Below are positions 1-52,000 of a stretch of 64,000 bases of DNA, one piece after another. This stretch comes from Lytechinus pictus (Eukaryota). Location: the NCBI RefSeq assembly GCF_037042905.1, contig NC_087245.1, positions 3,102,001-3,166,000 of the forward strand, in the 5' to 3' direction. Position 1 is the first letter of the stretch. Each line of letters opens with the position of its first letter. The position numbers were made by a program, and so were the translations under genes. The notes beneath the pieces are model-generated. The model saw only the letters and a list, made by a program, of their open reading frames with translations. It did no database searches and had not been told where the DNA came from.

Positions 1-556
1 ATTTATTCAATTTTTCTCAAACTTTTGTTGATCTGTTTCTTTGATTTATCTGTTTTCACACAAGCTATCTTGTTCTAAAGTTTCATTCATTTAACAGTGA
101 TCTACTGAAATGAAACAATGAGAGCCTCAAAGTACTAGTAAGGCCTTACATGTAAAGGCCTACATGTACATGTATATTTGTGACAGTGACATGAATAATT
201 TCACATTAAATTTGAAAACCTCTTCATATTAATTTAACCTCCTTGAAAGGCTTATGATTTTTCTGGTGCTCTCCAAGATAATATGGATGTTAATTGTGTG
301 GGCTTTGGATAGTCAAAAGATCTTTATGTACATGTATGCAACTAGTACTAAACATCATTTTCTCCCTATGTCAGCCAGATTCCGAGCAGGTGCTGACCAG
401 AGAATAAGACACAGTTCTCTACTCATTTCTCAACGGGGGTGGGGAATTCACTTGAACATTTCTCAAAACTTTGTACAAACATTATTTTGTGGTCCATTTA
501 TATCGTACATGAACATCACATGTTGAAACATATAATTGAATACACTAAGAAATATA

Positions 557-1632
557 CAGTGCGTTTCAGAAAAAAGGTAATCCAAATCTAGAGGGCCGGT
601 ATTCGGATCGTTTTTAATTTTGTGAAATTATTCTGCATTGGTATGAAAGAAAAACTCATCAGCTTTCAATTGATACCATATTTGTACCATCTGTGCCACG
701 CATGACCGAAATAATTGATGTTGAAGACAACAGGTGCAGGTACCACTTTTTCCAAGTTTTGGTATAGTGGGTAAAATGTGCGCTTCATAGAATAAAATGT
801 AAAAAGTAATGTTTGGAATGAAGAGTCAAGGCATTCCTCTGAAATGCTGATTGAAAGGTTAATGTCTTATTCATCATCATCACCTTCAACATTTCCTCTT
901 CTCCTTTGCTCACAAAACTGGTAGCATTGAGGGATTAAGGATATCTTGGACAGCTCGTTTTAGCATTGCTGGATCATTGCACAAAAAGCATCCAACTCAT
1001 GTCGAATTCGGCGTTGCAAATCATCAAGATCTTGAGAAGGAATTACAAATACATTGTTGTTAAGTGTCCCCAAAGGAAATAATTACATGGCGCTGAGGTC
1101 AGGGGATCTTGGTGGCCATTCTACTTCATGGTTGAGGGCAACAACTTGATGTCCGAAGAGTTCTTTTAGTCTTTCTCGAATGATGTTGGAACGAAGGACA
1201 GGAGTGCTTGTCCCGAATCCACCAAAGATGCAGGTACACTCCTTGAACCTGCCTCTCAAAATGTTGGTCCAAAGCCTGAGGTATGATCTGCTTGTTAATA
1301 ATTTGCAAGTACATTCACCCACTTACACTCCTTTTGGAATAAAAAGGTTCAATCATGATTTTTGCCAGCTCAGGCATCGATGTAAGTATTTATGTCAGCA
1401 TCTGCCCTTTCATCAAGCTCTCAAAAACTTTGAAAAAGTGGTATCTGCACCTGTTGTCTTCAACATCACTTTAAATAATTTGGTCATGCATAGCACAAAT
1501 GGTACAAATAGGGTATCAATGGAAAGCTAATGAGTGTTTCTTTCACATCCATGCAGAATAATTTCCCAAAATTGAATGTAATTCGAATACCAGCCATCTA
1601 GTTTTGGATTACCTTTTTTCTGAAACGCACTG
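557..1632 (-). mobile_element. Tc1/mariner-superfamily transposon relic with ~200-bp terminal inverted repeats
   Basis: TA|cagtgcgtttcagaaaaaa...ttttttctgaaacgcactg|TA. Imperfect TIRs extend about 557-760 and 1425-1632. An internal minus-strand, frameshifted transposase fragment reads VVALNHEVEWPPRSPDLS. Confidence 0.9.
1000..1322 (-). pseudogene. Degenerate DDD/E transposase C-terminal fragment (WPPRSPDL motif)
   Basis: WPPRSPDL is the conserved ITm/Tc1-mariner motif preceding the last catalytic residue. The frame is broken by stops and frameshifts. Confidence 0.8.
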
Positions 1633-1708
1633 TATAGTTGAAGTCAATTCACAGTGTAAGAATAATTGTAGATGCATTCCATTTCATTGTAGGAGTTAGG
1701 TTGATCAA

Positions 1709-1900: not shown

Positions 1901-2000
1901 GAGGATTTCTATTTTGAACATAAAAATTTGGATTATTTTTATTATTATCATCAATTCATATACATGTTCATTCTAGAGGTCTTGCTGTAGTGATCTCATT

Positions 2001-2983
2001 GTCTTGCCTGCATAGCAGAGTGAGACTATAGGCGCCGCTTTTCTGACGGCGACGGCGGCGATGTCAACATCAAATCTTAACCGAAGGTTAAGTTTTTGAA
2101 ATGACATCATAACTTAGAAAGTGTATGGACCTAGTTCATGAAACTTGGGCATAAGGTTAATCAAGTATTAGTGAACATCCTGCTCGAGTTTCAGGTCACA
2201 TGACCAAGGTCAAAGGTCATTTAGGGTCAATGAACTTTGGCCAAGTTGGGGGTATTTGTTGAATTACCATCATAACTTTGAAAATTTATGGATCTAGTTC
2301 ATGAAACTTGGACATTAGGTTAATCAAGTACCACTGAATATCCTGCCTTAGTTTCAGGTCACATGACCAAGGTCAAAGGTCATTTAGGGTCAATGAACTT
2401 TGGCCAAGTTGGGGGTATTTGTTGAATTACCATCATAACTTTGAAAGTTTATGGATCTAGTTCATAAAACTTGGACATAAGAGTAATCAAGTATCACTGA
2501 ACATCCTGTAGAGTTTCAGGTCACGTGACCATGGTAAAAGGTCATTAAAGGTCAATAAACTTTGGCCATGTTGGGGGTATTTGTTGAATTACCATCCTAA
2601 CTATGAAAGTTTATGGATCTAGTTCATAAAACTTGGGATACAAGAGTAATCAAGTATCACTGAACATCCCCTGTGAGTTTCAGGTCACAAAACCAAGGTC
2701 AAAGATCAGTTAAGGTCAATAAACTTAGGCCATGTTGGGGTAATTGTTGAATTGCCATCAAAGTTTATGGATAGAGTGAATGAAATGTGGACATGGGTGT
2801 AGTTGACAAGTCTTAAGTCACCGTTCAAATGTCATTTATGGTCAATGAATGTGGTATTATGTCATTATATGAATGGTGTTTTTGTGAATGATCATTTTAC
2901 AGTAGTTTTCATAGTTACATGTAGCACTGCTGCTATATTAAATCGCGTAATGCAGGCGAGACTGCCAGAGGCGTTCCACTTGT
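2001..2983 (+). mobile_element. Non-autonomous Helentron-type (HINE/DINE-1/pearl-like) element, family A, with about 4.5 tandem ~163-bp units
   Basis: 5' hairpin gtc(t/c)..cctgcatagcagagtgagac, then (ggc)n-like microsatellite. Unit starts at 2127, 2290, 2453, 2615, 2769. The 3' subterminal IR atgcaggcgagac is complementary to the 5' end and is followed by a short gcc-aga-ggc stem and a T-rich flank. Confidence 0.8.
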
Positions 2984-4380: not shown

Positions 4381-4563
4381 ATTTTTAATTACTTTCATGG
4401 AATGTACATTTCATGTCATTGCTGATGGCTCTTTAATGTTTCAAAACATTATTTCTATGCCAGCAATAGCACCTGAACTTGAATGAATTTAATTTTTTCA
4501 CATTCTCCATTCCCTTTGGTGTATTCTTTAATTTTTTTAAATGTTTTTAATCTTCTTTTATAG

Positions 4564-4643
4564 AACTAATTGGAGAAGGTGCAGATTGTTCTCTTACAGA
4601 AGCTGAACTGAATGGATTCTCCAGCTGTAAAGCAAAAATAGCG
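4564..4643 (+). CDS. MGAT5: MGAT5 coding exon (window exon 1; xLIGEGADCSLTEAELNGFSSCKAKIA)
   Basis: Acceptor ttttatag, donor gtaggt. Resembles vertebrate DIINGAQEKCVLPPMDGYPHCEGKIK and ends in phase 0 before the WMRDMW exon. Confidence 0.85.
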
Positions 4644-7600
4644 GTAGGTACCATCAGAATGATTTTCATTCTACACCTGGTCCAAAGGTTCCTGAAATGA
4701 TATGTGAAATCAATATCTTAAAATGTATGTTTGTATGGTGCAATTAAGCAAGCAAACTCTGGAATCTTCATTGAGATTGGATGAAAAATATGAAAAAAGA
4801 TGTGTACATGTTTTTTGTTTTTTTCTCTTGGCATTATTATAAAGAAAGTAGATTTGTGTTTCTGCTCCAAGATTGTGAAAGCATTTATTATGTTTGTGCA
4901 TCATTGGTATAACGTACTTAGTTACGATTTAAGACATTAAAAAAAATCATGTAATGAATTAAAGTATATCATCAGCTCACTTATGGATATTGTCACCTCA
5001 CTCATGGATATTGTCACCTCACTTGTGGATATTGTCAGCTCACTCATGGATATTGTCACCTCACTTGTGGATATTGTCAGCTCACTCATGGATATTGTCA
5101 CCTCACTCGTGGATATTATCAGCTCACTCGTGGATATTATCAGCTCACTCGTGGATATTATCAGCTCACTCGTGGATATTATCAGCTCACTCGTGGATAT
5201 TATCAGCTCACTCGTGGATATTGTCACCTCACTCGTGGATATTGTCACCTCACTCGTGGATATTGTCACCTCACTCGTGGATATTATCAGCTCACTCATG
5301 GATATTGTCACCTCACTCGTGGATATTATCAGCTCACTCATGGATATTGTCACCTCACTCGTGGATATTATCAGCTCACTCGTGGATATTATCAGCTCAC
5401 TCATGGATATTGTCACCTCACTCGTGGATATTATCAGCTCACTCATGGATATTGTCACCTCACTCGTGGATATTATCAGCTCACTCATGGATATTGTCAC
5501 CTCACTCGTGGATATTATCAGCTCACTCGTGGATATTATCAGCTCACTCGTGGATATTATCAGCTCACTCGTGGATATTCATGATGATGATTATGTTTAC
5601 ATTATACGACTTTAACTTAAGAAATGCCCGAAATTATAAAAATACAATTTTTGAAAGTTTTGATGATGTTTTATACGGTTTGCTTGTTTGATTTTTACTC
5701 TATTTTTGATATTCCTATCAATTTTAGGCTCAAGTGTACACCCCTTTAAATCAAAATGTTGGGAATGGAATTAATGGATAGGTGTGCGGAATGAAAAGAT
5801 ATGAAGAGAAAGAACAAAGGAGTTAGAATAATATGTGTAGGGAAAGAGATGGGAAGAGGTGGATGAGAGAGAGAGAGAAGGGGGGGGGGTTCAGGTTGAA
5901 TCAAAGAAGAGAAAGAGAGAAGGAGAGGGAGGCAGAGGATGAAGAAGATTCAATCTGTCTATTAAAGGAAGAAATCTTAAATATCCTTTTACAAATTAAT
6001 AAGGCCTATATGTTGTTTTGTATGAAATGGACACATGTTTGTTGGATAAAAAGAAAATGATTTCTCAAGAAGAAATCATCATACAGTATATTGCTCCCAT
6101 CAATGCATGTGTTGATTCTGTCTCAATTTCATTGTTCTTTTTTTCAACAGTGGATGAGGGACATGTGGCGATCTGATACATGTTATGCACGGTATGGAGT
6201 TGATGGTACAGACTGTTCATTCAGGGTTTATCTCAGTGAGGTAAGACCAGATTTGCAGACAAATGACTTCCAGATTTAAAGGCTTACAGTCATTAAAATA
6301 AACTCAAATTTTGCTCATTGCAGGAAGATTTTCAATCAAATGCAACCCTCAAACGAAATCATAAATTGATTTTCTATTTAATCAGAAGTGGACAATTCAG
6401 GCATTTATTTATTTATTTAGTTGGATCTTTAAAGATTTGTATTTCAATGCGCAACAGGAACTTGGGTTGACTTGAGTTTGTAAAAAAAAGAAAGAAGAAT
6501 TAATGAGGTGGCTGAAGATCACTGGGCTTCACTGCCTGGAGCTGGATTTTAGTGGAAACTCCAATTCCAGATAACTTGCTTGATTACATGTATAAATCTA
6601 CATTTCTATCAATAAAATAACACTTATTTGACTTTTTATCAAAATATATGGATAAAAGAAAGTGGTCCCACATAAACTTTAACTTGAGCAGTTTTGTCTA
6701 TTTGAGGAAATAAGAATATTTGGTCTTGCAATCAGTTTAACAATTGGAAACACATGATGAATGCATCTCACCCCTCTCTTCCAGTGCCTTTAGTAAACCA
6801 ATTTTCCCTTTAATATGTGATACAATACAAACATGCTTTAACTGATGAGACTAATTTATCAAATTAGATTTCTACTCTACTGACGTATTGAGCAATGCAT
6901 TATTCAGTGGTTCTATAAAACTTGCTGGGCACTCAATTAAACTCATTTGATCACCAAATGTTATATACCCTTATATATGTTTCCATACACACCCTTGTTC
7001 TTTTTGTTTTATTTTGTCTTGTCACAGGTTGAAAACTGGTGCCCAAGAGTAAAGGGCAGAGAAATTGATCCTCCGAGTATAATTCTTCGGGACTATGAAA
7101 AGGTGAGAAAATTGGGACCTGAATGTAAGTTAAAAAGTAATGGAAAGAGTTTATTCTGACAAAATAAATCATAAATTCACTGTCAGTTCCACATTCTGAA
7201 GATTTTATGACACTATTAGCTGTAAAATTAATTGATCTGCGCAAATTTGGGTCAAAGGACTCGGAGTATAATAATAAAGAATGTAGAAATACTTGATTTT
7301 CTCATCAAATTTCACACATACATGTATGTTTAGACCACTCTTTGAATAATGTCATTAAAATTGTGACAAATGTACTTTGCAATAGAAATATCAAATGCAA
7401 GTTTAGAGTTACTTTATTAAGCCAATGTAAGTTCATATGATTCAGAAATACTGTGGTCACCATATCATGATCTTTGCATGTGTATTTCTTTCCTAACTTT
7501 ATTTAACCCAGTATTGTGCCTTCCAGTGGAAACTGCAATGCTAACAGAGCCAAAGATCCAATCAAATTAGGGTTTCTCTGGCAATCATAATTGATTATAT

Positions 7601-10600
7601 AGTTACCATATAAAGAGTAAACTTTTATGCAACAGGGCCCATATGTGATATATCAACCATCGATTTCAGTATGAATAATAAATGACAGAATGGCATTGTT
7701 AATCAATCATCAACCTGTGCTGTTCAGACTTCAACATTAACAATTCATATCATGATCAAGATGACTTCAAGTTCATAAGGTCAGCTCATACACAGTAGGT
7801 CTATTTAAAAAAGAAATCTGTGAAACAAACATAAATGAAAACTGTTAACTATTCTTAAGGACTTAGAATTTGCTTTTAAAAGTTGTGAGAGTCACTCTAA
7901 AAAGAGGCTTTGTTTATTTTGCTGGAATAGCCAAAATTTTCACTCTATTTAAAATCAATTTTTCCGTAATTGCACTTCTTATTGATAAGGAGAAAAAAGC
8001 TCTTCAAAATTTCCTTTTTAATTTTGGCTATTTGATTGCATGTACACATACATTCTGTTGCTCTCTACCTTTCTTTATACTATCACATTTATGTAAAAGT
8101 TATTCCTCTTTGAATTACAAATATTGCACTCATTGCCATTGGTGTTTAGATTACATATATGACATGAATAATATTGGATTCATATTTTATCAATATCAAT
8201 TGTTAATTTTTTTCAAAATGAATTTATTAACATGTACCCCATATGTATTGTATGTATCTTTTGATTTGACCTGCTGGGTCGAGATTGGAATTGTGAGGGC
8301 CGATACTGTTGTTGAATTTAAGTTAAATACTTGCATGAACAAAAAAATCCGGGCTCATTCTATGAGCATCCTGAGAGGGTTTGTTTGACCCACAGCACAA
8401 TTAATGTCATCAATGCTACTACCATATTGAACTTAATAGAACCTGTACATGCATACATTCTATATGTACCTCCCTCCTAGATTAAGTGATCTTGTGATAT
8501 GGCAATTCAGTGCTAGAAAAATCAGCCATTTTCACAACACTTTTTAACCTGCTGTCTAAACAAACGAGGTTGTTTTGTTTTTGTTTTTTGTTTTACTTGG
8601 TAATACCCAGTGGGTAGTCATGTAAAAAATGATAACCAACAAAAGCAAATTATCCATGGGTGAATTAGAGGTGAAAATGTTGTATGTCGTACGGGGCATT
8701 TCTGAGTCCCGTACGTCACACAACATTTTCACCTTTCATTCACTCATAAACATTTTTTATTTGTAATGAGTTTTTCACATGACTACCCACTATAACTTTA
8801 TCAATGACAAAAAAGGAAGTTTCATTGCTTAAGCATCATTCAGCCAATAAAGAGACTAGAAATTGTTGAAATGTCCCGTACGACACATATGGAATCACCC
8901 GATAACATGTTGACTATATTTACGTACTGTATTTAATTTTACATCTGCACACTATATATATCAAAAAGCCTGAAGTACAAATAATTCCTGTCGTGTGACC
9001 TGTTTATGGGAACAGGATGTTATATACATGTAGATTTTCCTGATTTCATGGTTTAATGATGCAGACTGATATAAAATATCTACCAAAATGTATGTTTGCA
9101 AAATATATGGGTATACATGTATGCCGTTAGTAAGCACCCGTAGGACAACTCTAACCCCCTTGAGTTGAATGAAAATACAAAGGAGTAAGAAATGTTTTGT
9201 CTATTTATATTTACATTGCACAAAATTGATTGCACTAAGTGATTGGTCAGTGAGAGTTTTTTGCATGCATTCGTAGACAGCATGACTTGTTTAACAGCAT
9301 CAGACTCATATTAAAATGAAAAGACAAAAGCTGCAGCCTCAGCCTGGATTATAGGCTACCTGCAAATGTGATCATGATTCAATGTGTTGCTTGATGACCT
9401 ACATGTATAACAATCATCTTGAAATCTCTAGTCTCTAGATCAATACAGTCTAATTCCCAAACCTGTAGAATTCAAGTTTTTGTCTGTGGTGACACTCATA
9501 AGGGAGTTTTCGGACAGCAAAGAACAGAGTAAATTTTTTGTCAAATGCACATCAAATGACAAAGAAAAATTCCTAAATTTTTGTCAAAAATTGATGAACT
9601 GGAAGAACAGTTTCATCTAAGTTTCAGAGATGATGAAAAATTATGGTTTGATTTACCAGTATTGAAGAACAGAGTACATTTTTTTGTCAAATTCCCATCA
9701 AATGACAAAGAAAAATTAGAAGGATTTAGTCAAAAATTGATGAACTGGAAGAGCAGTTTCTTCATAGTTTATGAGCTGATGAAAAATTACAAATATATTT
9801 AATGCTGCTTTGATTTACCAATATTGCACAAAGACTTCTATCGTTCTTTGTCATGATCGCCATTTGACAATACATTTACTCTGTCCTTGAATCCTCTGTT
9901 TATCGTTAGGGGGAAAACTCCTGAATTATGTGACATTGAGATCTTTCATATATGCAATTGTGCATATGTACATGTATTTAAAATGTATTTATTTTCTTTC
10001 TATTTTCAAACTCTGTATTATAATACTGTTGTAATGAAAATCATCACTAACCATTCAACAACCAAAATTTACCAACATTTAATGAATTAAACCAAATTTG
10101 AATGAAAATTAATCACCTTTATTCATCATCTACTGAATTTGTAAAACCACTAGAAATATTCATTCTTGGCATGACATTGAGGCCGTTCTCATTACGCTTT
10201 CTAAAACTAGTTTACTGGAAACCGATTCAGGAAACCACTTTGGAAGATCGCTTTGCTAGCGTTCCCACTTGATCACACGTAAGTGGATTTCAAAATCACT
10301 TCACGTAAAGCGCTCTTGTTGCTATGGAAACGCTCTCAGTGGGGTGACACGTTTCGCGCGAAATTCGAAACCGCAGCATAGGCATTCTACACCTGTCGTG
10401 TGGAGTAGCGCGCTCAAAATGTGCGAAGATCGCTTCCCGAAGAACGGTTGTGTCCTCACTTACGCTAAAACCAGTTTAACGAGGCAAAGCGATCTTGAAA
10501 ACTACATCGCGAGGTGGTTTTCCAAACTGGTTTGGAAGATCGCTTCCAAGACCGCTTCGACCGTTCTCACTACGCGTTAAACTAGTTTCCACTAAACTAG

Positions 10601-13600
10601 TTTCCACTAAACTAGTTTTAGGAACGTAGTGAGAACAGCCTCAATGTCTCATGAAATGTCTTGTGATTTAATGCTACAGTGGCCATCAGGTCATTAGTTG
10701 TGCATGTTCTAAAAAAAAAGATCCAAGATAAAATAAGAGCTGAGATAGTTAAAGTTAATAAAGACAATACATATAATTTTCAACCAAAACATTTACAAAA
10801 AACCAAGGTAGAACAATTTGATATTGAAATTCACCAGCAGGTACAAGGTGAAAATGATAGATGGTGAGAAAATATTGATGTGTAAACAACATATAAATTA
10901 ATAATGGGGAAAATAATACTGTGTGATGACCTGTGATACGAACATTACATGTATACTGTAGTCTTTAATGTTGTAGTTGATGTGAACACTAATATAGATT
11001 GATATAAATGTATTAATAATATATTGTCAGCCAATTTTGATAAATTATAGGGTTGTGGTACATGTCAATTAGAAATGCAGCACCAGAACATATTGATTTT
11101 ATACAATTGATTCGCCAGCATTTGATCTATCCTAATAACACCTAAGTTGTGAAATGATAATAATATTTTGCCATCAGTTGTTGAAATAGACATATTAAAT
11201 AGCTGAAGGTTGATGAATATTACACAAGATCTTGACCTTGCATCCCACTGATCTATAATACTCCCAAACCACTGTTAAATATTCATGAGTGTGCTTGCAA
11301 ATACCAAACATGGTTGTAAGGATTTTCACAATGCATGGCTCGAGCTATGTGGCATCTAAAACTATAGAGCCAAAGCATCAATTTGGTGGTCTCATTCCCA
11401 AGGGTTGATATTATATTCATTGGTTTTGGTTTGACACCTTGGCAAGTGAGTAAGGATGGCTGCAGCACCACTGTGAGATGTGATGAGAAATCAATTTTCA
11501 CTTGACCAAGTAAAAGGAGAGAGAGAGAGAGAACGGGAAGGAGAAAGATGGAGGCAGACACCCAAGATACATGTATATGATAGTTAAAAGCAGAGCTGTA
11601 TGTAGGTTGGTGAAAATAAATATGATAAGGTAGCATTACCCGAAGAAACACAAGTTGAAACCATGGTTGTTTTTTTACAATTTTCTGTTGGCTATTGAAA
11701 ATGACTTTGATGGACCTTCTTCAGTCCACACATGCAACCGTGGACCCTAGGAATGCTCCAAGTTGACATTTACTTCCTGGGTCAAGTGTCTAGGCATTAT
11801 ATGAGGGATAATCTGTTATGATGAAAATTAGCTTGAATTCTGTCAGGAGTTTTGTGTAAGCATTTTGATATATGGTTCATGATTATGATTTTAACTGGAG
11901 AAAAACAATTGATAATGTGATTGTCATGACCAGGTACATTAGGAAGACATCCAGTTTCCCCATCTTGGCATCTAGTGGTAATTGTTTATGCCTTGGGTTT
12001 AAACCAAGGACAAAGTGAGATTGATCTAAAACACCTTAATTACATGTACACAGTTTAAGATGAAATTGGTTTTTATTCACACTGATATAAAGTAAAATCT
12101 GTAAATTTTAACATGTGAATTCTGCCATGGACCTACTGTATCCTACTTTATCAGTGTGAAAGGTGAAAGAAACAGAATAGGACAAAATTTACAAACCAGA
12201 TATGAATCAATGTGTCTGGGTTAAGATAGCTTCCATTCTTTGGCTCTATCATCAGAAAGAATACTGCAGTTTTGGTAAAATGCATTTTCATTTCCATACA
12301 TTTCCTCGCAACTCGTTTAATGTCCAAAAGCATATAGATTTAGATCCATTGATTTACATGCCAATCAAATTCTTGAAGTTTGTTATGAAAAGGTGATTCC
12401 TCTGTATCATGCAATGTTGATGAACTATGATTTATTCTTCATTTCTCAATCTTGTACACCGAATCTGATAGCTTGATGAGCAAGATTACAGTAAACCCCT
12501 TGGATAAACTTCATTAACATGTATGTCTTAAAGAGTTTAATTTGCTTTGAATGCTGTCTACCACTCTACAGGCTAAGATCCGGTTTGAGAAACAAGGTCT
12601 CTTCAATCTGATGCAGGAACCTACCAAGTTCCGTTGGATTAAGATGAGGATATCAAGGATGTGGGATTCTATGTGGGTACCTGCGGCAGAAGAATTCAGC
12701 AAACTACAAGGAGACAAAATCAGAGAACGAAAGAAGGTAATTATTATCTGATAATCAATAGACAATAGTCAGACATTGTTTGATTTAATACTTTTATTTT
12801 TATTTCTCTGTTCATATTTTAGCTATCATAAAAGTGATGCAAAATCCACATCAAATTTTTTATTGCATAATCCTTAAGGCATTTTCAAATATTGACTGAC
12901 ACTATAAAATAAAAAGGATAATTACAAGTATATAATGAATACAAACTTTCATGTTTGAAGTGTGGGATCAAGTGTCTTTTCCAATCTTGATGAAGATCTA
13001 TAATAACATACTCCTTGCCCCTCTGTACACTAAAATGAAAAAAAAAAGAGTTGGTAGTTTGGGTCTTTTCTTGTATTTGAATTGATTTTCTAAAGTAAAT
13101 GCAAATCATTTCTGATTTCTTAGTAAGAAGAATTCAAGAATTTGATTCTTCAGTAAGCATGAAGTGACATCTTGCTGCAATTCATCCAGTCATGTTACCT
13201 GCCTTAAAGTTCAATATGATACTTTATTTCCCTTACAAAATTACATTTTCCTCAAGGAAGGTATTTTCCTCCAAACCATGCATGCTTGAGGCACTCATTA
13301 AAGAAGCATTGATTTATGTGACCGCATATCCCAAATTACTCATTTGGACTTTCTCTAGCACTGATAATGTTCCCTGCATCTTTATTTTCTTGCCTTTTTA
13401 ATGAGCAAAGAGTGTGAGCAAATCAAGTAGATATTAAAAGGGAAAGTTGAAAGTGGGCTAACAAATTTGTATAGTATGATTTTTTTTTAGTTTGCATTTT
13501 CATTGTTCTTAGTATTAATGTTTATCTGTGAATTTATTTTTGTGTATGTGTTCATAACTTCACCAATTCATATATTCATTCATTTATTTAGAATTTCATA

Positions 13601-31600: not shown

Positions 31601-34041
31601 AAACTTATTCTGCACTTATTCATCTCTACCTCTTAGAACATATCCTTTATTTACTTTAAAATTAATCTAAAATTGTATGTTAATGCCTATTCAAGAATAA
31701 AGTTTCTTCCCTTGTTCTGTAGGATTGTTAGTGCTCCTTTTAATTACTTTTTGAAAAATGTATGTTACAGACATTACTATGTTTACATTTCAGTAATTGC
31801 ACTTTGATACATTTTCTAACTCATTAATTTCTGAGACCTGCCAACCAGTAAGATTTTTTTTTTGTATTCCAGTTTTTATGTGCAAGCAAAAAAAGTAAAA
31901 TTTTGTAGGGAACAAAATCATTTTTTTTAGATAAATTATATGTATTTTTTATTTATAATTTCAATATTTATGTGAGACCAGTAATAAAAATATTAAGGGA
32001 GACCCGACATAAAGCATAGGAACTGCAAGACTTGGACAAAATAATTTTTTGGGGCCTTTTTGTAGTGGAAAAAGAGAACACATGTTTCTCTCTTTTACTT
32101 CAATTTTTTTACCTGCTATCCCCCCCCCCCAAAAAAAAAAGGATCAATTTAAGATAAAAAAAATGTTTTGAAAAGAAATGCATGAGAACGGTTGAATTTG
32201 TCAATTTTTGTTTAAATTGAAAATAGGGTCGATTGAATAAAAAAGAATTTTGATGGGAAAATACACATTTTTATTGACTCATGGTTGGTAGCTCTGCTGA
32301 CTTTGTAAATAAGCATTCATAAAGCTTATATTTCTAAAGAAAGTTAAAGCTAGAAATTAAAACTAACTCAATCCCTTTTGTTTGTCCTTTGCTTTACAGT
32401 TATTTATTGGTCTTGGCTTTCCTTATGAGGGTCCTGCTCCACTTGAAGCTGTAGCTAATGGCTGTGTCTTTCTCAACCCCAAATTCACTCCTCCTAAAAA
32501 TTCTAAAAATACTAAATTTTTCACAGGAAAGCCAACAGCTAGAGCGGTAAGTATAAATGTTTTGATCTGTTACATCACCTTAAATACATGTACATGCGTA
32601 ACATTTTAAGGATATGTTTTGTTTTTTATATCTTGCATTCTACATGAAATATGACATGAATAGCAGGCCTCTACAAAAAAAATTTGCTTGCCCGATAGAA
32701 AAAACTGCTTGCCCTATTTTTATTTTAAAAGTATATTTTCAGCAATGTAGGCCTGAGTCATTACGTTTATTTAGATTTTTTCGCTATTTATAAATGGGGC
32801 TTATTTGAAGGTTAAAAAAAACTTCACCAAAAGTTGCTGAAATTTCATATTTTGCATCTTTAAATCCATGAAATGGTTATCTGTTTGCCATATTTCCTTA
32901 GAATTGTTTTGATTTAGTTGGAAACTATAAAGAAAGCCAGTGAAAAATATTCAGCTCTTTATTGACTCTGAAAAAGATCGTTTTATGATGTAAAAAAAAA
33001 TCAAAAGTGGAGTGGCTAAAATTTCACATTTTGCATCTTTAAATCCATGAAATTGTCATTTATTTTCCATATTTCCTGGAATTTTTTAAAAATTAGTTAG
33101 AAACTATCAAGAAAATTAAGAATATTCACCTCTCTCTTGTCTTTTCTTCATCATTTTATGATGTTACACTCGGTCAATATTTTTTTATTGTAGTCCGGCA
33201 TGTAGACTTTCATGGGGTTTTTTCATGGTGTTGCAGCTTTGATCGTTGATCGTATCGATTGATCGTATCGTTTGATTGTTTTACACTTGGTCAACATGGA
33301 AGTCTACATGTGGGACCACAATAATAAAAAGCATTTACCAAGTACATCATCATAAATCAGAGTAAAGAAAGAGCTGAATATTCTTCATTTTTTCAGTAGT
33401 TTCCAACTATCAAAACATTTTAAGGTAATATGGAAAATACATGTCCATTTCATGGATTTTTGCAAAATGTGAAATTTTAGCCACTTTTGGTGGTTTTTTT
33501 TTGCAAATTGCTCAAGTAGCGCGTGCGCAGTCATTGCACACAAAGAACGTAAGATGCGTTGGCACGGTTTTTCGAACGAGGTACCTGGCGATAAATTATT
33601 GGTAATTGGCGCTGTTTTTATATCAGTTTCCACTTTTTTTTTTACTGGTTTGACATAATCTGAGAGATAGTTGTGATTATCCAAAGGATATTGAAATTTA
33701 GAGGGTCTACTGATATTTTATTTCCAAAACAACCACTTGCCCGATCGGGCAATTGACTTTGAGAAATGCTTGCCTGCACGTCATTTCAACTTGCCCCGGG
33801 CAAGCGGTTTTGTGGCACCCTGTGAATAGATTTATATCTACTGAAAAGCTCTGAAACCAACAATTGTTATGAATGAAACAGGGTACAGAGATATAAATAC
33901 ATTTTAGCTACTCATATTTTTCACTACATAAAGATACATTTACTTTACTTCCCTTAGATATTGCAATTTGAGACATTTGAGAAAGAAAGAAAGAATTGAA
34001 AGAAAGACAAAGAAAGAAAGAAAGAGAAAGAAAGAAAGAAA

Positions 34042-34081
<40 letters not shown>

Positions 34082-40000: not shown

Positions 40001-43000
40001 ATGTAACAAACAGCTCATTTCAAGGTTTATTATTCGTAAGTATTTTCATGCAGGCTGTTAAGATTTGCATTGGTTTCCATACACTAGCTTGTAGAATAAT
40101 TTGGGAAGGCAGGTACATCACACTTAAGTTTAGGTCAAGGTCAAGTAGGAGTTTGCAGGCCAATGATAAGAAGTCAGGACTTAAATTCTATAATTAGTTT
40201 CAGCTTGATAATTTGAAAGATGTTGGACAAATTTAAATTATTTTAGGAATAAAGGTACATCGCGATAAAGTGTGTCTAATTAGAATTAAGTTTCAGATTT
40301 ATTCAAACGCTGTAGCTCCTTTGGCCCTTTTGCCAATGAAATTGTAGTGTTAATCTAACATGCACAAAATTGAAAATGGGGTTTGATAGTCGACCAATTA
40401 TATTACTTTTGTATTCCTTCACATTTTATTCATTTTATTTAAACTCACATGATTAAAATTCAACATACACATATGGACAGTTCTATTAAAGATCCACCTT
40501 TCTTGTTTGGAGTGATGATGTTGGGTTTTTTTGTATTCATTCCCTTCATTTATGAAGGAAACTTGTGCCCTTTTGTGTAAGACATCATCTTGTGAAACTA
40601 CAACTTAGCTGGGTGAGCTGCCTTGGCTGTGGTATGTTCTCATGCCATGAATAAAATGAGTGATAGATCGTTTTAGCATATATGTCAACTTACTACCGTG
40701 ACCTCTGAGGCCCAGTCACAATAAACTTGTTAAAGAAATTATTACAAATCAGTTCTAAGGATTTTAATAAATTGGGGTAAAATGTGTTGACCATCAACCT
40801 TTGCCTGTACAAATCTGTGTAAGGCAAGTGTCATGCACCATTGAAATGTGCAGTTGAGTTGAAATTTCAATTCAATTCAATTTTTTTGCAAAAAGATTTT
40901 TTAAAATATGAAAAGTATCATTAAGATATAAATTGATAAAATATTAATTACATGGCTTTCAACAAAGTCTATAAAAATAAAAACAGGATCATGGCCCAAA
41001 GGCTGAATTTCAAGACTTCTCTAAGCATTGAATAACATTTGGTATTATTATTTAGATGTAGGGTTTTAGAGGCGCAGATATTTTTTGACGTCTTGTGAGG
41101 TTGTTTCAAAGAGACAGAATATTAAAACTGATTTTTAACGTGCATGCCTATGAAAACCATCCGATATTAAAAATATTAGACGAAATAAATATTTTGCCCC
41201 GCCCACAAGATTATCATTGGTTAATAAATGATTGTGCGCATGAAGCTATTGTTACGTCACAATGAAATCGCAATGCGTATTAGTTGCCAGAAGGTGTGGT
41301 AAAGGAGCATCAATTTATTAAATTCAAATGCGCTTGCACTATACTGTAGCGCATCTTAACTCTATTACAGAGATTTCATTTTTTGAAAAATGATAATACT
41401 CAGGGGCCATGCTCATGATTTACAGGATTGCCATAAATGATGGTTACATGTACTAAAAACAATTTTTTTGCTTCGTTACTTTATGTTTAGCTTTTTGGGG
41501 GTATCTAAATAATAATAAGAATATTGAATAACCAATTTTCGTGAAATGCGTAGAAATATTGTTAGTCGCTGAAGAACATTATTGGATTCGTCTCCGACTC
41601 ATCCGATATTGTTCTTCAGCTCGTACAACATATCTTCGCATCCCACTCAAGGCCATCCAATATTCCCTAAATATGAGTCATTACATAAAAAGTACATACA
41701 AATACAGAGCTCATGCAAATAAAGGGTTGTGGTATGAATCAACATTATAATATTATCAGCAATTGTAAGCTGTTTTAAAACATTTTTCTTGTTTTTATCT
41801 TTCTGATCACCATTATCATAATTCATCACTTTCATCATTGTCTTTGTAATTATCATTATTATTAATGTCATTATTATCAATATAATTCAGAAATTGAAGT
41901 ACCTGTTAGCTTTGCATATAGAATAACATCTGAGGTGAAGTTTGTGTAACCCCCCCCCTCACAAAATGCACCCTGAATGCTGAGTGTTGAATGTACCGTA
42001 AACAACACTTCAATGTTCAGGGAGCCTAGAGAAACAAATTTTATTGAATGTAATATTTTATCACCTGACTTCACAGTTAAAGCTAAATGAACGTAGTTGC
42101 AGTAAAACACTGATTTTGTGAGAAAGTCTGTAAAACCAAGGTAAAGTATTGATATATCATCGTGGATCTAGATCTGGTACAGTTACATAAACTGAACTTT
42201 GTGAAATCATAATATCTAGCTAAAAAACGATCACACTGAAGATCGCCAACACAGATAGGCACACGTGGGACAGTGTATTATTATTGCTGGAATAAAGACC
42301 CGACAGAAGTGACCGAATCCGCGCTTAGTTTGCTTATTTCTCAGCAATTACACAATTTCTTCCAGAATCCTGTGGCACATATTTTTTATTCATACAAACA
42401 GACACTTTGGTGATCATATTAAATTCTGTAAAAAGTCATTTTGAGATCGTTCCCACAACTGGAATTTATCTTTAAATATCAAACATGGCGGGACTTGAAC
42501 ACTTTAAATAGATGTGTTTATTTTCTGAGTGGGGTTCACTAATTGTATCCCCCGAACAGAGTTTGGAGGATACTATGGATTTGGCCTCGTCGCGCCGCCG
42601 CCGCAGAGATTTCCTTGTGAGCGCTCTATCAGCTGCATTTCTTCTCCGATCATCTTCAAATTTGGCATGAAGGTAGAGTATGGTATAGCAAAGCGGCCTA
42701 TCGATTTTGGTGTGGGCGGAGACATCATTGCCATGGTAACAAGTTTTTATGGAATGGCAGAGATATCCTTGTGAGCACTCTACCAGCTGCATTTCTTGTC
42801 CGATCATCTTCAAATGTGGTATGAAGGTCCACTATGGTAAAGCAAAGCTGCCTATTGATTTTGGTGTGGACAGAGACATCGTTGTCATGGTTAACAAGAG
42901 TTTATGTGGAATAGGCGAGATGTCATTGTGAGTGCTCTACCAGCTGCATTTCTTCTCCGATCAGCTTCAAATGTGGCATGGAAGGTCCATTATGGTAAAG

Positions 43001-46000
43001 CAAAACCACCTATTTATTTTCGTGTGGGCGGAGACAACGTTGCAATGGTAACAAAAAAAGAATTTTTGTGAAAATAGCAGAGATGTCCTTGTGAGCACTC
43101 TACCAGCTGCATTTCTTCTCCGATTATCTTCAAATGTGGCATGAAGGTCCACAATGGTAAAACAAAGCCGCCTATTGATTTTGCCTTGGTGTGGGCAGCG
43201 ATGTCGTTGCCATGGTAACAAGAGTTTTTGTCATTGTGAGCGCTCTACCAGCTGCATTTTTTCTCCGATCATTTTCATATGTGGCATGAAGGTCCATTAA
43301 GCCAAGACGCCTCTTGATTTCGATGTGGGCGGAGACATTGTTGCCATGGTAACAAGGGTTTGTGGAAATAGAGATTTCCTTGTGAGTGCTCTTCTGGCTG
43401 CGTTTCTTCTCCGAACATCTTCAAATTTGTCATGAAGGTCCATTATGGTAAAGCAAAGCCGCCTTCTGATTTTGGAGTGGGTGGAGACATGGTTGCCATG
43501 GTAACCATATTTTTTTCCAGTTTATCATAACAGTATGCCCACAGAAGCATTAGAAGCATTTGAAGGTATAAAAGCGAAGATGCCTATCATTTTTGGTGAT
43601 GTGGGGGGGGGGGTCTTTATTGTCATGGTAACAATCCAAGTGAGTGTTACCAATAACTATTACAATCCAATGTATCATGCTTACTTCATTCCAAGGTACA
43701 TGTATCATAATACCATGCTGTTCCCATATATATAGAAAGTTTGTCATAGCAGTTGGCATACACAAGCAATATTAGAAGGTATTAAAGCGAAGATGCCTAT
43801 CATTTTTGGTGGGGGGAGGGTCTTGGGTTAGGTTTACAAAATATATCCAGATTACTCTATAATTGTATTCCCCAACAGGTGCTACTGGACAATACTTCAG
43901 GTTCTGCAGAGTCACGCTGCTGCGTCATATTATTGTCATCAAATTTGGTAACCATTGGCAAAATGTGGGCAGAGTCATTGTCACCATGATAATTGTATTT
44001 ATTTGTCAAATTTCTGTATGAGCTCTATGTATCGCAATGATGGATGATGCGGTGGGTTCGGATGTCAGTTGTTGCCTGGCCCTAGTGTTTCTTCTTTTGG
44101 CTTAGGGATCTTGTGTAACAATCTTTCATTCTTTTCAAGTTTTTTTTTCAAAGGAAAGACAAAAATCTTTTGCCCTCTTTAGGCCGAGGTATTTTGGGAG
44201 ATTATATGACGAGAGGCCTTACAGGTTGAAATCCCAGTTGTCGACTGCGTGGTCGCGTTGGAAACTGGCATGCATTTGTCTGCAACCTAATCTACAAATT
44301 GCGTAGTTATAATATTTCATGAAATTTTCGTGTAGGCTAAGTCCTACTTTTTGGTGTAACTCCCCCAATAATAAAGTTCCCAGTGTGCTAATTTTTGGTG
44401 AAAAAACACTTTTTTGGTGTTCTTGGCAAATATGCTAAAAAATATTAGATTGATTTTTTATGTATTATTGCTTTTAAATTCTTTTATGTATTTTGAGGAA
44501 ATTTATACATTTTATGACATTTGGCTGAATGCAGAATTTGTATTGATATTGCCCACAACATCAATTTTTGAGCATTTTTTTTTTGGAGCAACACGTTTTT
44601 TTGGTTACACATTGCTCCAAAATGATTTGATACACATAATAGTTCTAGAGGCACAGATAGTAGTATATGAACTTAAAATGTATTTTTGACATTTGAGATG
44701 TGTTCATAGAGCATCAAATTTCAGTAAAAACATTTCAGCAGCCTATTGATTTATGAGTAATAGCATGTTTTACTAATTGCCCCAACCCACATTGCAAACA
44801 GCTAAAAACAAATCAATGTCTTATCCACTCATGAAAAAACACATTAGTTTTTTATTCATTCAAATAGTGTTAAAAAATCGAGAGCATTCCCTCCCGCCCC
44901 TTCTTTCAAATCCTATTACTTAATAGTAACTTGAAAAAAATACTGACATTGGATAAGAGGTTTATAAAAGAAGGGAAGATGGATATGAGATTACCATTTT
45001 CAGGGATTTTTTTTTTTACATCACAATGCTACATTTAAGGATTTTCTTGCTACTTTTTATGATGATGCAGGGTATTACAAGCAAACATAATGGTATCGGC
45101 CTGTTTTTTTAAGTACAAAAAGGGGGAAATGAAAGAAAAAGTATTGTGTATGTATAAAGTATGATTTGCATTTAATTTCTGGATTTTTCATAGAGAAATC
45201 AAATTATTCTTCAGTGATGAGACTAGTTTCTTGGTTATGTTTCTGAAAAAAATGAATTGGATCGGATATGAGATGATTTATACCCACTTGATCACAGAAA
45301 TTCCAGTTATTTTTCTTGTTACGATACCTCAGATGGATGTGAACGTAATTTTTCAAGTATTTTGTGGCCTGAAATTGTTCTAATTATTTGTATTCTTTTG
45401 ATGGAGTGGTCATGTAAGCACCTAGATTCATGATGCAAACCCAACATGATATTTTTTAGTTAAATTTTGTTACCCCAATTATCTCTATTTTCTTCTTTTT
45501 AACGATATCATTTTTACAGAAATATTGAGTAAAATGATATGATTCTCAATACTTAAAAAAAAGTTCATTAACAGAGTAAATGTAATGTATATAAGATAAA
45601 TGACGAAGGGAAAGAGAAATATGAAGAGAGAGAGAAAGGATGAGGGAGGAGAAACGTTTACTTCTGATCAGAAAAGCTGCATCATTGATTACTTTTTTAC
45701 ACTTTCAAATGTTCTATTTTTAAAAGACATAATTACATTTGATTAATATGACATAGAGGTAAATTTGATTTGATTTATTTCTTTTTCAATGTGTGTTAAT
45801 TCTGATTTTGATCAAAAATAAAGTTCTGTGTATATGTTTTGAGGGCTAAAACAAAGTTTTGTCCCAAAAAGGGATTAACGTCCATTATCTTACACTCTAG
45901 GTTTTATGTAGATGCTTAGAGCTATTTGAATAAAAAGGAACAAAAATGTATATTTTGTTCAGAAATGATTCTATCATTGTTATAGCAAGGATAGACAAAT

Positions 46001-49000
46001 AAATGAAGATTCAAACATGTATTGCTTCAAAGAACACTGAATGAGAAAAGGGAAGGGGGGAGGATTACATGAGAGTGGCTTGGAAGAAAATTGAGACGGA
46101 AAAGGAAATTAATCAGGAGGTATTCTAAAATTGACAAGATGGTGGTTGGTGTGGTTAGAAATATCCTGATGAAACAAGAAATCAATGAAGTTTCCTTCTC
46201 TGAATGGCATAATTACAATGAAATTTCATATTCATATCTTTGAATAACTTTATAGTGTGCTTGTACTCAGCCCAATTTTATGGAAAACTTATTTTACAAA
46301 TGCCCATCAAAAAGTTATGAAAGTGTTGTTTGTCACCCACCCCCCCCCCCTCATAAATAAATGTTCCAACTTCTTGCCCGCTTTGTCTATTAGAATAACA
46401 TAAATTGAACTACCAGGTTCAACTCAAGTCACAATTTTATTTACCTTGCACACAGAATGCATTAAGTCTATTGTAAATGATGTATGCGTAACATTGTACA
46501 GTGTACACATAAAGCTCTTGTCTCAAACATTAAACTAATTGAATGTTATTGGAGTTGAATAAGCCAGGTCCATGCAAAAACCATGGATGGTTGCACTCTA
46601 ACATTAATGTCGCAAAGGAGGGATTATGTCTGTGGTGTGTAAGAGTTAAGGAGTGCAAGTTGTTCAAGAAAGGGCGTTTAATAATATGCGAAATCTATAA
46701 ATGTTCCCTTGCAAACTAATTTGTGATTCACACGTAGGATATATATTAAGTCCTGTCATTAATGGTGATACAAAACTCATATTTTCTCTTTTTATTTCTT
46801 TGCATAGAGTATTTGTGGCATCAGGAATGGATTTTATTAAAAGGAAGATTTACCAAAATAATATAATACAATACTTTATTTCTTAAAAGGAAAATTTACC
46901 ATTTAAATTTCAATTGAAATACTTTTATCTTGATAATGATAAAATACAATACTGACTTTAGATCTTTCTATAGAGACAAAAGTTCTTTACCTCTGTGAAT
47001 ATCAACACATTTTTAAAATGCTTTCACCCACTGAAGATTTCAAGACTTGCCTCAACACATCAACTTAAAAAATGTCATGCTTTTATTTTTTAGTATTTGA
47101 TATTTTAAAATAGAGTACAAAAAATATTTGATTCAAATGATTGGATTATGATAGCATAGGTAAAAAATGCATTAAAATAAAAAATTGATTTTATCATGAA
47201 AGAGTTTAACCATTTATGACCTTTCAACTCTGAATTTTTCATAAGCAATAAATGATGATTAGAAATGAGATTCATAAGAATAAAGAGGACGTACAATCCT
47301 GTTGATACTTATGATTATATTCTTTATTTATTCAGATACTTTTTGTTGGTGCTATTAATTTTGACAGGAAATTCAATATGAATCTAATTGTCTACACTTT
47401 TTTATGAAGGTACATTTCCACAGACTCATCCTTGGATCTTAATTTCCATATTTGTTTAAAGCATGGAGTAGCTCCATTTATAAAGACACAATTGTCATCA
47501 GTTTACAAAACTTAAAGGACAAGTCCACCCCAACAAAAAGTTGATTTGAATAACAAGAGAAAAATCCAACAAGTATATCACTGAAAAAATCATCAAAATC
47601 GGATGTAAAATAAGAAAGTTATGACATTTTTAAGTTTTGCTTAATTTCGCAAAACAGTTATATGAACATCCTGGTCGGTATGCAATTGAGGGACTGATGA
47701 CATCACTCACTCACTACTTCTTTTGTACTTTATTACATGAAATATGAAAAATTCTAATTTTCTCCTCATTGTGATGTGAAACAAAGTTTTATTCCTCTCT
47801 GAACATGTGGCATTACCATTGTTATAATATTGTATGGTTCATTTAAGTTGGTCCTTAATGTCAAATTGGTAAAAATTGAAATATTGTATAATTCAAACAA
47901 TAAAAAACAAAAGAAATAGTGAGTGATGGACATCATCGCTTCTCTCATTTGCACGTCACTGACTTGTGCATATGACTGTTTTATGAAAAATAAGCAAAAC
48001 TTTAGAATGTCATAACTTTCTTATTTTACATCCGATTTTGATCAAATTTTTAGCATTATGTTTGTTTAAATTACTCTATTTATTCAAATCAACATTTTTG
48101 TGGGGTGGACTTGACCTTTAAAGAAGAGCTACTGACACTTTCAGCTCTTTAAGTTAACCAGAAGGCTGTTCCATAAAGCTCTTTGTAAAGTATGACTTTG
48201 AACATCATTCCCAAAATATTGGGAATGATGTTCTGGTGCTAACTTTCCTTGGTGTTTTATAGAAGTGGGACTGACTTTCCTATAATCCCAATACATATGA
48301 TAACGTTTGTATTGAAATGCCTGTATACCACTTGAATGTTTATCTTCATGTTTAAAGTTCTTCGTAAAGTCATTGCTACTTTCCAATTCCAAACAGCAGC
48401 TTTGAAGCACCCTTTACATGTACTTTGTATTTCTTACTATTCTTTCAAGTAAATTGTCATATGAGATTTGAGTATCAAGTCCAAAAATATTTCTTAACAA
48501 TTGATTCAATGCAGTCAATTTATAAGCCAATTAAAAGAATTTGTATACAGTCTTGCTATTCTGTTTTTTTTTGTAAGCATATTTTTGTTAAATAGTGGGG
48601 TGAATTCAACTGAGACTTTAAAAAGTACTAAACTTGGTCTTTGCTTTGTATTTAAAAAGCATTACCCAATAAAACCAAGATCTTATTTTATTAATTGCAA
48701 TATGTCAATGACAAATCAACTTGAGAGTTCCATGTGCCATTTGTCAAAAGAAATGACCAGTAGTCAAACGGAAATGTTTGTTTTGTTTTCAATTATTTGC
48801 AATCGATCACAAACATATCTTACAGGTCCCATGTCAGTGGTGCTTATGAAGGAAAAGCATCCCCCTAATTTCACTTAAATACTGTAACCCAATTGGGATA
48901 GGAGTCGTTGATCCTTGTATCAAACCTATAGGAATTTGTATGAGAGTCCACTAACCATAACCAGCCAGTTAGTGCCACAAAGGGAATCTTAATTTAAAGG

Positions 49001-52000
49001 TGCACGTTCCAAATATTCAAGAGGGCGCTGTTGGATGGGGCTGTACTTGCCGCCATCTTTATTGCAAAGATCATCAGCCAGTCTTGCAGCACATGCTCAC
49101 ATACACAGTACACATGTGTATGCTGTGCTGCTTTTAGCTACATCAGTGCTGGCCCAATTATCTGCTGACGTCACTTCACAGAGCAGGAGTCGGAGCCAAC
49201 CTGCTGGGAAAATTCAACCAGCAGCCGAAGCTCATAAGAACTGAGTGAGAATCAGAGTTTGGGCATTCAGAATATGGCATCTGCCTAAGCGTTGTTTTAT
49301 ATTCAGTTCATTTTTTGTTGGTGTCAATGGGCTGCTGGTGCCATCCGCAGTGCATACGTATGTCCAACATCACCCTCATAAATCCGGGGAATTTATACCT
49401 TTAACTTGTTGAAGACTGAGCCCATATACATATCCTCAGCATTCATCCGAACCACCATATCAGTCAATTTGGGTTAAAAAAAAAAAATCAATTTTGAGAT
49501 TTTTACAGAAAACGAAAGTACAAGTCCTACTCTATACAAAAACAAATTTCTAGGTAGTTATATATTTTAGTTTCTGAGATATGTGGTGATTTTCAGGGCG
49601 AATCCCATTGGAAACTTTACTTATTAAAAGTTAATACGCGGTCATCAAACCATAGTGTCTGCAATGCATTGACTTTGCATGAAAAGAGTGATAAAACATT
49701 TTGCTGATCGTGTGTATTGGAAATGCAATGAGGGTTGTCATATTTCCTATTGCGTTTTGTGAAGGGAGAATCTAAACCGCTCAAACTGCAATTACAAGCT
49801 TGTAGCTCTTTTGCGATATTTTCCTAATTCTTGGTTTTACCAATGTCAAGCAGTTGTCTTGTAATTTTCTTGCAATGAAAATCTTATAAGGCTGGGGTCA
49901 AAAGTGTGGAAATTACAGTAAAGTTTGAAGTCGATTTTCTCTGAAATCGGTTTGCAACATTGTACGTGATACATGGATTCAGATGACCGCTGACTATAAA
50001 AATTTGTAGCCTGGAGTCTATAAGAAATATTTGTTAAAAAATAACAAAATCAGACAGCCTCCAAAAGTTTTCAGAAGGTGGTTTCAGACCGCCTCGAAGT
50101 TCGTCAGTTCCAGGTATTTTTTGATCGGGAAATTTACCCGATCAGAAAATACCAGGTAATATTGGCAATGTGAACGCAAATTACGCGTAATATCCCCAAA
50201 AGAAAATACCCACGAAATAGTAGGTACTTGGCAAAATTACGAGAACTTTCGCGGGGATTTTCCAAGGTCGCAGGTATTTTGGCAATGTGAAAGCAATTTA
50301 CGGGAACTTTTAGCCCAGCGTGTGGTTGGGCGCGGGCGCCGTTGGTGGCTGCTGAGCTAGTGGTTTTGAATCTCGTGCCTTGCCTGCTTATCAGACCATA
50401 CTGCGCATGCTCTTAACTTCAGGAATAATATCCCGAAGGGTATATTTCGGAATAACCACCAATAGTCGTGATGCACTTTTAGCTTCCATAGTTAGATTTA
50501 TTTGTAAATTAATATTTTTTTTAGAAGTTGGCAAGCAGCTTAAAAGCTTAATAAGTGCAAATATTTTGTTTTAATGTATAGTTTGCATTCATTGAGCATT
50601 GAAATTGTGATCTCCAGATAAAGATTCATACTAGTTGAATGTAAAATCAAAAGTAGTGGTTGATTCAGACAAGAAGGTTGAAGAAAACCTTGAATTTAGA
50701 GATATTTGACATTTCCTCTTTTTATTCTAATTTTCATTTTGTGATATATTTTTTCAGGTTGATGTTGGATAGCAAAGTATCTTACAAATTCATTCATAGA
50801 GTGGGATCAAATACTGCTTCAAAAAGTAGTCACTGTACATGTATATTCAGAATGCTTCTCTCCTTGATCAGAAAACTGAAGTGTAAATATTCATCTTTTG
50901 AGCATAGTGATTTTGGGTTATGAATGATGAGATAGTTGGAAATGACAGCTTCTATCTTGTTTATTCTAGAATGCTTATTATGTCTTAGCTTACTTGTAAA
51001 GTCATATGCTTTCATCGGATGATGTAGGTAGTAAAGACTACCTTGTCAGTGGTTGAAATCAATTCTTTTTACCAAACCGTCTATTTTAAGCACAATATCT
51101 TAAGATTATTGTTAACACAGGAATATATGACAGTGGGAGGCATTATTATCTATGTTTCAGACCTCATATTAGTGTAAGGGAAATTGCTCGCAAGTTGGAT
51201 GTTTTGCACTAATGAATTTGGTCATGTTAATATTGAAATGAAACATTTAGATTTGTTGAATATTTATAGGACATATTAGCTTTGTTGAAATCATTTTGTG
51301 AAATTAGTATTTTATTTCATTTATATTTTATTTTGTTGCCAAAATAATTTCTTTAAATATTACATACTGGCACCGGTTTCTGATGATATACATACATTTA
51401 TCAACACTTGCTTTGATACATATTATGTATGTTTTAATTTATTCTTTTGTTTTGCAGATCTTGTCTGTGAACCTGGATTCTTCAAGCAATTAAATAACAA
51501 AGAAAGTATTGAAAAGTAAGTAAATTCCTTGCCAGGATAAATTGACAGAAACTATGTTTTTTTCACATTTGAGAAAATTTATCACATGGAAAACTCAGTA
51601 GATATATATTTCATGTAAGAAGAATGAGATCTCATAAATGGATTAACTTCTATATGGTTGTAGTGTTGCATATATTATATCAATATATTTATTGCAGAGT
51701 GTCGTATCCCAACTAAGAACAAGCTTGGTTATTAAATCTTCTTTCAATGCACTTTGTGAAAGTAGGGAAAGGATGAAAGAAAATTAATGTAATGATGCAC
51801 CTATCAGTGTAAGTCATGTTCACAAATCTACAGAATTCAGCATTTCAATTTGCCTATAGTGAAAAACAATTTTAACCCGATCTATGGGGGGGGGGGGGGG
51901 AGCTTGGCTCAGAGGTCCCCCTCATTTTTTGCAATATTTTCGGAACGCAAAAAGCTCTCGCAACGTTTCATGACCTACTCTAGTAGGTCCATGCTCAAAC

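Follow-up and report, generated by a model that had tools for sequence, protein, structure and literature searches.

Why does a single palindromic octamer, TACATGTA, recur some forty times in one stretch of a sea urchin genome? The stretch in question, 64,000 nucleotides of the Lytechinus pictus assembly GCF_037042905.1 (contig NC_087245.1, positions 3,102,001 to 3,166,000, 34% GC; hereafter the window), carries 42 exact copies with starts from 147 to 50836. The original prediction, made from the letters alone, had counted about 40 by hand and read them as footprints of Tc1/mariner excision; all 11 positions that it named are present. The octamers are probably excision scars of a Tc1/mariner element with the structure TA/CA..TG/TA, repaired in an unusual manner to a single product. 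This part of the prediction is partly supported, by the excess of the word, by its net +6 polarity at all three sites open to comparison, by Tc1-like flanks and by a TA/CA..TG/TA relic in the same window, and it is opposed by the usual scar spectrum, which is not enriched.

The excess was measured against a Markov background, a comparison set beforehand. If the octamers are kept in the model, 2.4 copies are expected at order 0 (base composition had been said to predict 2-3), 3.1 at order 2, 4.5 at order 3 and 7.4 at order 4. With the octamers collapsed out, the expectation is 1.9-3.2 across orders 1-4, with P = 5e-35 at order 2, and the enrichment within this window is about 15-fold. TACATGTA is the most frequent palindromic 8-mer (runner-up, 16 copies) and the most frequent word of the form TA-N4-TA (runner-up, 17), and among the 256 8-mers of alternating purine and pyrimidine the next five in enrichment all overlap it. 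Octamers 147 and 161 may represent one 14-bp duplication, and 147, 161 and 167 may not be independent events. Four sequencing runs were aligned over positions 6000-21600, namely X15 and X16 (organism D), X2 (organism A) and X10 (organism B), with divergence from the window, in the longer pieces listed, of 1-3% for organism D alleles and 6-8% for organism A. Contigs of X15 and X16, which may come from the animal used for assembly, match the window without difference over octamers 10946, 11568, 12041 and 14345, and alleles diverging by 1.0-1.2% show no deletion at 9025, 9114, 9400, 9969, 18732 and 18992 (6 of 6 sites). Since divergent alleles and run contigs carry the octamers, they are not an artefact.

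Alignment of repeat copies, proposed with the original prediction as a check, indicates that the octamers arose by insertion wherever comparison is possible. Self-alignment of the window places 3 of the 42 inside alignable paralogous DNA, and all three (2916, 18127 and 25691) are net +6 bp relative to their paralogue. The paralogues of the 2916 site, at 23861 and 57235, both read AGTCAGCACT, while the inverted right arm of the 25.5-kb element, at 26046-26074, is without the 6 bp and shows a plain TA, as had been described. These two had been called provable insertions; the term suits their polarity, but not a TA anchor, as detailed below. The third case, 18127, was absent from that account: its paralogue at 49646-49998 reads TT, and the 6 letters are missing from 12, 7, 22 and 1 contigs of X15, X16, X2 and X10, respectively. 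As the repeat family lacks the 6 bp in these 42 contigs from four runs, the octamer at 18127 is an insertion. Run X2 shows ACATG inserted behind 16411 and A behind 16412, within another repeat, which may jointly spell TACATGTA in a second organism if both lie on one contig. An allele over 19513-20659, a span covering five octamers, is 18 nt shorter through deletions only, and the organism A contigs that cover 6585, 14345, 18732, 20501, 20614 and 21447 show gaps of mixed kind and are unreadable.

The flanks of the octamers carry a target bias. With 161 and 167 merged, 41 sites provide 82 half-sites, for which six patterns were tried. A stands at -3 in 39 half-sites (28 expected) and T at -1 in 13 (26 expected), with purine at -1 raised; AYA occurs in 13 (4.7 expected, P = 7e-4) and RYR in 27 (10.7 expected). 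Among the six patterns, only AYA agrees with the published Tc1 target consensus, given as CAYA/TATRTG in the accessible part of 10.1101/2022.02.02.478770. The octamer flanks resemble the Tc1 target and display the preference of the superfamily. A metagenome scan for three stacked TACATGTA units yielded at least 116 loci, a set selected for the word and drawn from mixed organisms, of which 12 were kept (GC at most 0.46, at least two isolated octamers outside microsatellites). Outside the query runs these 12 hold 66 copies of TACATGTA against 2.4 expected, with L022 alone contributing 18 further octamers in 19 kb against 0.65. Their 55 isolated octamers replicate the RYR/AYR bias, with A at -3 in 52 of 110 half-sites (37.6 expected), T at -1 in 18 (32.4 expected) and RYR in 33 (18.2 expected, P = 3e-4). 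In contrast to the window, the 12 loci have more copies than expected of TATGTA (60, 35 expected), of TACTGTA (12, 5.7 expected) and of words with one mismatch (82, 47 expected).

A possible source of the scars lies near the left end of the window. The relic at 557-1632, for which TA/CA...TG/TA ends had been claimed, possesses both the TA duplication and terminal inverted repeats, with inverted arms of about 210 bp that are 85.6% alike and identical over the outer 24 nt. The relic itself is frameshifted and has no Pfam match, and a word-indexed protein search of it was also empty; its longest stop-free piece has 69 phmmer relatives (to E 1.9e-7), with DUF4817 in two and DDE_3 in one of the six scanned for domains. 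The four relatives checked all have D-41-D spacing and align back to relic positions 885-1356 (tblastn, E 1e-17). Judged by these similarities, the relic appears to hold remnants of the C-terminal part of a transposase akin to DD41D proteins and may be called DD41D-like, of the rosa/Visitor type. Its tips begin with CA and end with TG between the TAs, the inner bases of TACATGTA, a correspondence that fits only the 2+2 fill-in route described below, and its family is a plausible donor. At metagenome loci picked only for stacked TACATGTA, Tc1/mariner-like transposase sequence, which may be there by chance, is found at L009 969-1259 and L028 1595-1828, and in L028 a TACATG array seems to adjoin a long transposase frame. 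Small TA/CA..TG/TA inverted-repeat elements lie at L057 5771-7000, L044 308-495, L063 5-503, L023 3738-3884 and L070 1399-1462; such elements in octamer-bearing contigs are candidate donors in those organisms.

The proposed course of events would start with insertion of an element at a TA, which is duplicated, the target bias seen at the flanks favouring A-Y-R-TA-Y-R-T. Later germ-line excision, by known Tc1/mariner chemistry, would leave both TAs with short tip overhangs, and end-joining would lead to the one product observed, TA-CATG-TA, with a net gain of 6 bp. Two routes to it are envisaged. The first, given the somewhat larger share of the weight, would keep two 2-nt overhangs of CA and fill them in; family X polymerases can join non-matching 3' ends by such filling in. 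The second, given the somewhat smaller share, would involve a 4-nt staggered cut in a CATG-tipped element, with religation of the self-complementary ends, and would account best for a single product. Introns would then retain the small scars but lose the full elements, through departure or purging, which would yield the observed ratio of about 39 excess scars to one recognisable element, a ratio that would require near-complete excision, selection against intronic insertions or serial local hops.

Known footprints differ from this product in frequency or in form. Tc1 leaves the +4 scars TACATA/TATGTA about 78% of the time, according to the accessible text of 10.1101/2022.08.01.502254, and TACATGTA is a documented but rare Tc1 footprint (PMC3520976, in a passage citing Eide and Anderson 1988). 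It is absent from the eight Sleeping Beauty footprints given in the accessible text of 10.1101/659086. The statement that Tc1/Tc3 elements commonly leave TACATGTA therefore finds no support, and the common scars are without excess here. Caenorhabditis elegans Tc1/Tc3 share the TA target, the CA..TG tips, the flank consensus and TACATGTA as a recorded Tc1 footprint with the urchin, but the worm, as far as these sources go, shows mostly +4 scars, whereas only +6 is enriched in the urchin window. Sleeping Beauty also leaves a scar that is bounded by TA and holds element tip bases, but its listed forms are TACAGTA/TACTGTA and six minor ones. Minos leaves a six-bp footprint from a 4-nt stagger, in two non-palindromic forms. 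Its net +6 and TA-N4-TA geometry are alike, but its two footprint words count 0 in the window, and a CATG-tipped element would be required. Known footprint spectra do not match, so either both CA overhangs would have been filled in within the germ line, or CATG tips would have been cut four bases in.

The scars seem to be of recent origin. The 24 one-mismatch neighbours of TACATGTA number 71, against 44 expected at order 1 and 55-61 at orders 2-4; because these copies are barely raised, the sites look young, with a mean divergence since insertion roughly estimated at about 3-5% and an upper bound of about 10% (orders 2-3, neutral decay assumed). The repeats that host octamers are 68-80% alike between copies, and the scars are therefore young relative to them. 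The same appearance of youth would result from selection or from losses through TA-to-TA deletion.

Several results weigh against excision as the source of the octamers. Its usual products are not in excess in the window, neither the +4 scars of Tc1/Tc3 (TACATA 32 vs 36 expected, TATGTA 42 vs 47) nor the +5 scars of Sleeping Beauty (TACAGTA 8 vs 5.7, TACTGTA 7 vs 6.3); power is limited for 6-mers, though scars outnumbering the 39 excess octamers would still show. TACTA, TAGTA and TATA are also not enriched there, and TACGTA counts 10 against 6.7 expected. Of the three paralogue pairs, one shows a prior TA; ordinary TAs are shared in 79 of 125 cases (63%) between the same paralogues, a background against which this count carries little information. 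At 2916 both paralogues show C where the TA model requires T. The relic is the only intact-looking TA/CA..TG/TA element in 64 kb; the divergence of its arms suggests that it predates the scars, and +4 or +5 footprints would be the canonical outcome for its CAG tips. Elements tipped with CATG were sought without success in the window and in the at least 116 metagenome loci, as were CACG-tipped ones in the window. The metagenome set does not repeat the strict AYA flank (11 against 8.2 expected, P = 0.2). Among the indels listed for the short contigs over 6000-21600, no site has a full element in another allele.

No trio of full, empty and scar alleles was found. All-against-all alignment of the metagenome loci, with microsatellite-like flanks filtered out, gave no clean TA/TACATGTA allele pair; L091/L096 show a net +6 but are 71% identical, L045/L052 contain different numbers of units and L054/L061 are identical there. 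A 27-base piece of the Helentron-like repeat used as a metagenome query returned 0 loci.

The octamers lie within an MGAT5A-like glycosyltransferase gene (Table 1), one exon of which is 97% alike to a Lytechinus MGAT5A-like protein; the start of the gene was not found within the window. None of the 42 overlaps a mapped exon, all being intronic, and all lie upstream of 54652, on the gene side of the stop (P = 0.0013). They are scattered at about 0.8 per kb (about 0.7 per kb of intron), without clustering into modules, and unevenly spread, with 28 in 0-22 kb, 14 in 22-52 kb and 0 beyond, the density dropping steadily from the left end (rho -0.80, 4-kb bins). An octamer-free gap as long as the last 13.2 kb has P = 0.0026. 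In this window the gradient is not explained by CpG observed/expected ratio (o/e), GC, TA content or the availability of RYR-TA sites, and, the context being one gene, gene-body preference and a local patch look alike here. At metagenome locus L018, octamers adjoin an exon that, by eye, we take to be succinate dehydrogenase. The MGAT5A-like gene also has a 15.6-kb intron (35867-51456) packed with repeats.

Table 1. Coordinates of the features discussed, counted from the first nucleotide of the window.
Feature	Position	Strand	Remarks
TACATGTA starts, part 1	147, 161, 167, 329, 2916, 3315, 3648, 6585, 7319, 9025, 9114, 9400, 9969, 10946		
TACATGTA starts, part 2	11568, 12041, 14345, 15762, 17486, 18127, 18732, 18992, 19553, 19610, 19850, 20501, 20614, 21447		
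TACATGTA starts, part 3	24018, 25691, 27546, 27745, 31146, 32585, 35234, 35522, 36854, 39998, 41445, 43697, 48415, 50836		
Three-octamer cluster	147..174	.	161/167 stacked as TACATGTACATGTA
Octamer	2916..2923	.	net +6 in Helentron-like repeat copy ~2000-2990 (Helentron label from the original prediction)
Octamer	18127..18134	.	net +6 in copy of high-copy repeat ~18029-18700
Octamer	25691..25698	.	+6 at TA, left arm of inverted-repeat element ~25521-26259
Decayed Tc1/mariner element	555..1634 (557-1632 inside TAs)	-	ends TA/CAGTGCG...CGCACTG/TA
MGAT5A-like glycosyltransferase gene	4563..54652	+	13 exon matches, homologue residues 151-769
Octamer-free zone	50844..64000	.	gene end and 9.35 kb downstream of stop; 0 sites

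Among the alternatives, a TA-directed 6-bp insertion without a resident element survives best, for example through abortive transposase attack capturing 2 nt per donor tip or through a host nuclease and an end-joining polymerase adding a fixed CATG at breaks in TA. Such a process would suit a single product without sibling scars, the ratio of roughly 39 scars to one recognisable element, the recurrence of the octamer and of similar flanks at metagenome loci of unrelated genomes, and an excess of 6-bp indels in the lancelet, taken up below, that its source leaves unexplained. It is nonetheless rather unlikely, since CA and TG are exactly the Tc1-type tips and no local template is evident, CATG lying within 20 nt of 7 of the 41 sites against 7.2 expected. 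No enzyme is known to add a fixed untemplated CATG, which counts further against it.

Protein binding under selection, whatever the origin of the octamers, would be an improbable explanation, possible ligands being an Irx-type homeodomain protein, a CATG-binding BEN protein or, on the model of Phytophthora, a MYB. TACATGTA is cited as the preferred Irx site and as a very common Phytophthora promoter motif (PMC3520976, accessible text), bound by PsMyb37, and the slight halo of one-mismatch words at orders 2-4, the presence of all 42 octamers within one gene and their retention at 6 of 6 sites in divergent alleles would agree with selection. However, selection on Irx/MYB-type sites cannot create insertions, though it could retain them, and the +6 insertions inside repeat copies are left unexplained; the octamers are scattered instead of clustered into modules, and variants, which would be tolerated, are not enriched.

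Slippage or tandem duplication of TACATG-like hexamers, in DNA where purines and pyrimidines alternate, may have produced 2-4 of the 42 octamers; 161/167 and 32585 lie within exact hexamer tandems, and many metagenome matches fall in TA/CA/TG-rich microsatellites. As a general source it is highly improbable and for most sites largely refuted, because alternating 8-mers that do not overlap the octamer show small excesses only, none of the three insertion cases adjoins a copy that could have been duplicated and nearby templates are not in excess (2 of 41 vs 2.0). Methyl-CpG decay of another footprint (TACGCGTA, TACACGTA or TACGTGTA) deserves still less credence: octamer density has a weak correlation with TpG/CpA excess (rho 0.36-0.51, P ~0.045), one among six variables examined, and none with CpG o/e, the parent words count 0-1, and the missing sibling products (TATGCATA 1 vs 3.1, TACACATA 4 vs 2.3, TATGTGTA 4 vs 3.3) refute it unless repair were strand-biased in a special way. 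An assembly or library artefact, for example at junctions of CATG, a common restriction site, has a negligible chance and is refuted by the divergent alleles without deletion over six octamers, the X15 and X16 contigs agreeing over four more.

Excision scars of this type are already known. Their numbers are commonly considered too small, and their forms too diverse, for them to shape a genome, whereas here one fixed scar is the top palindromic 8-mer. No account of the exclusivity and density of TACATGTA, and no paper on a TACATGTA excess or on CATGTA indels in an animal genome, was found among the best-ranked matches, in a coverage outside which most subscription papers lie. The lancelet genome has an unexplained over-representation of 6-bp polymorphic indels (PMC4284660, accessible supplement), alike in being an excess of exactly 6 bp in a marine deuterostome and unlike in that the supplement gives no sequences there and CATGTA has 0 matches in it; a link to TACATGTA is a prediction. 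In Phytophthora the same octamer, known as motif-1 or AM-20, is abundant and lies upstream of 12,070 genes, but the accessible accounts treat it as a transcription-factor site and set a transposon origin aside without a test, whereas the urchin word is intronic and an insertion. A widespread new mutational signature is a tentative possibility: recent conversion of TA to TACATGTA, with a single +6 product concentrated in the introns of transcribed genes, would be common to sea urchins and further marine eukaryotes, would explain the lancelet 6-bp peak and possibly the origin of a Phytophthora motif later used by a host MYB, and would proceed through a Tc1/mariner family with atypical cutting or repair or without a resident element. 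If the excision reading is right, the octamers would allow past cut-and-paste activity and germ-line end-joining to be counted, would offer a sequence-level, one-alignment test of the lancelet excess and would be a confounder for motif discovery, since TACATGTA equals the Irx/MYB site. This significance is tempered by an unproven donor and by the prior record of TACATGTA as a rare Tc1 footprint.

Other repeats were noted in the window. A tandem array with a 21-bp unit, open in several frames, occupies intronic positions 4840-5705. Over the palindromic element at 10168-10688, whose ends are not TA/CA, the contig depth summed for each of the four runs is very high, so that this element is probably a repeat of very high copy number. 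At 14835-15600 and 16815-17000, high-depth repeat DNA contains repeated CGTAACGGACATGAC units in either orientation. The regions 25521-26259 and 47512-48121 hold related long-inverted-repeat elements, the 47.5-kb copy being bounded by TTAA at both ends. A GC- and CpG-rich intronic insert at ~37200-38950 (CpG o/e 0.8-1.0, 36-40 kb bins), with short open reading frames lacking Pfam matches, is possibly a younger mobile element. GTGGCCAC has 5 copies in the window against 0.27 expected, those read lying in 35792-37210, apparently in one repeat. At 55614-55930, a Helentron-like 5' end is fused with a fragment from the 18-kb repeat family.

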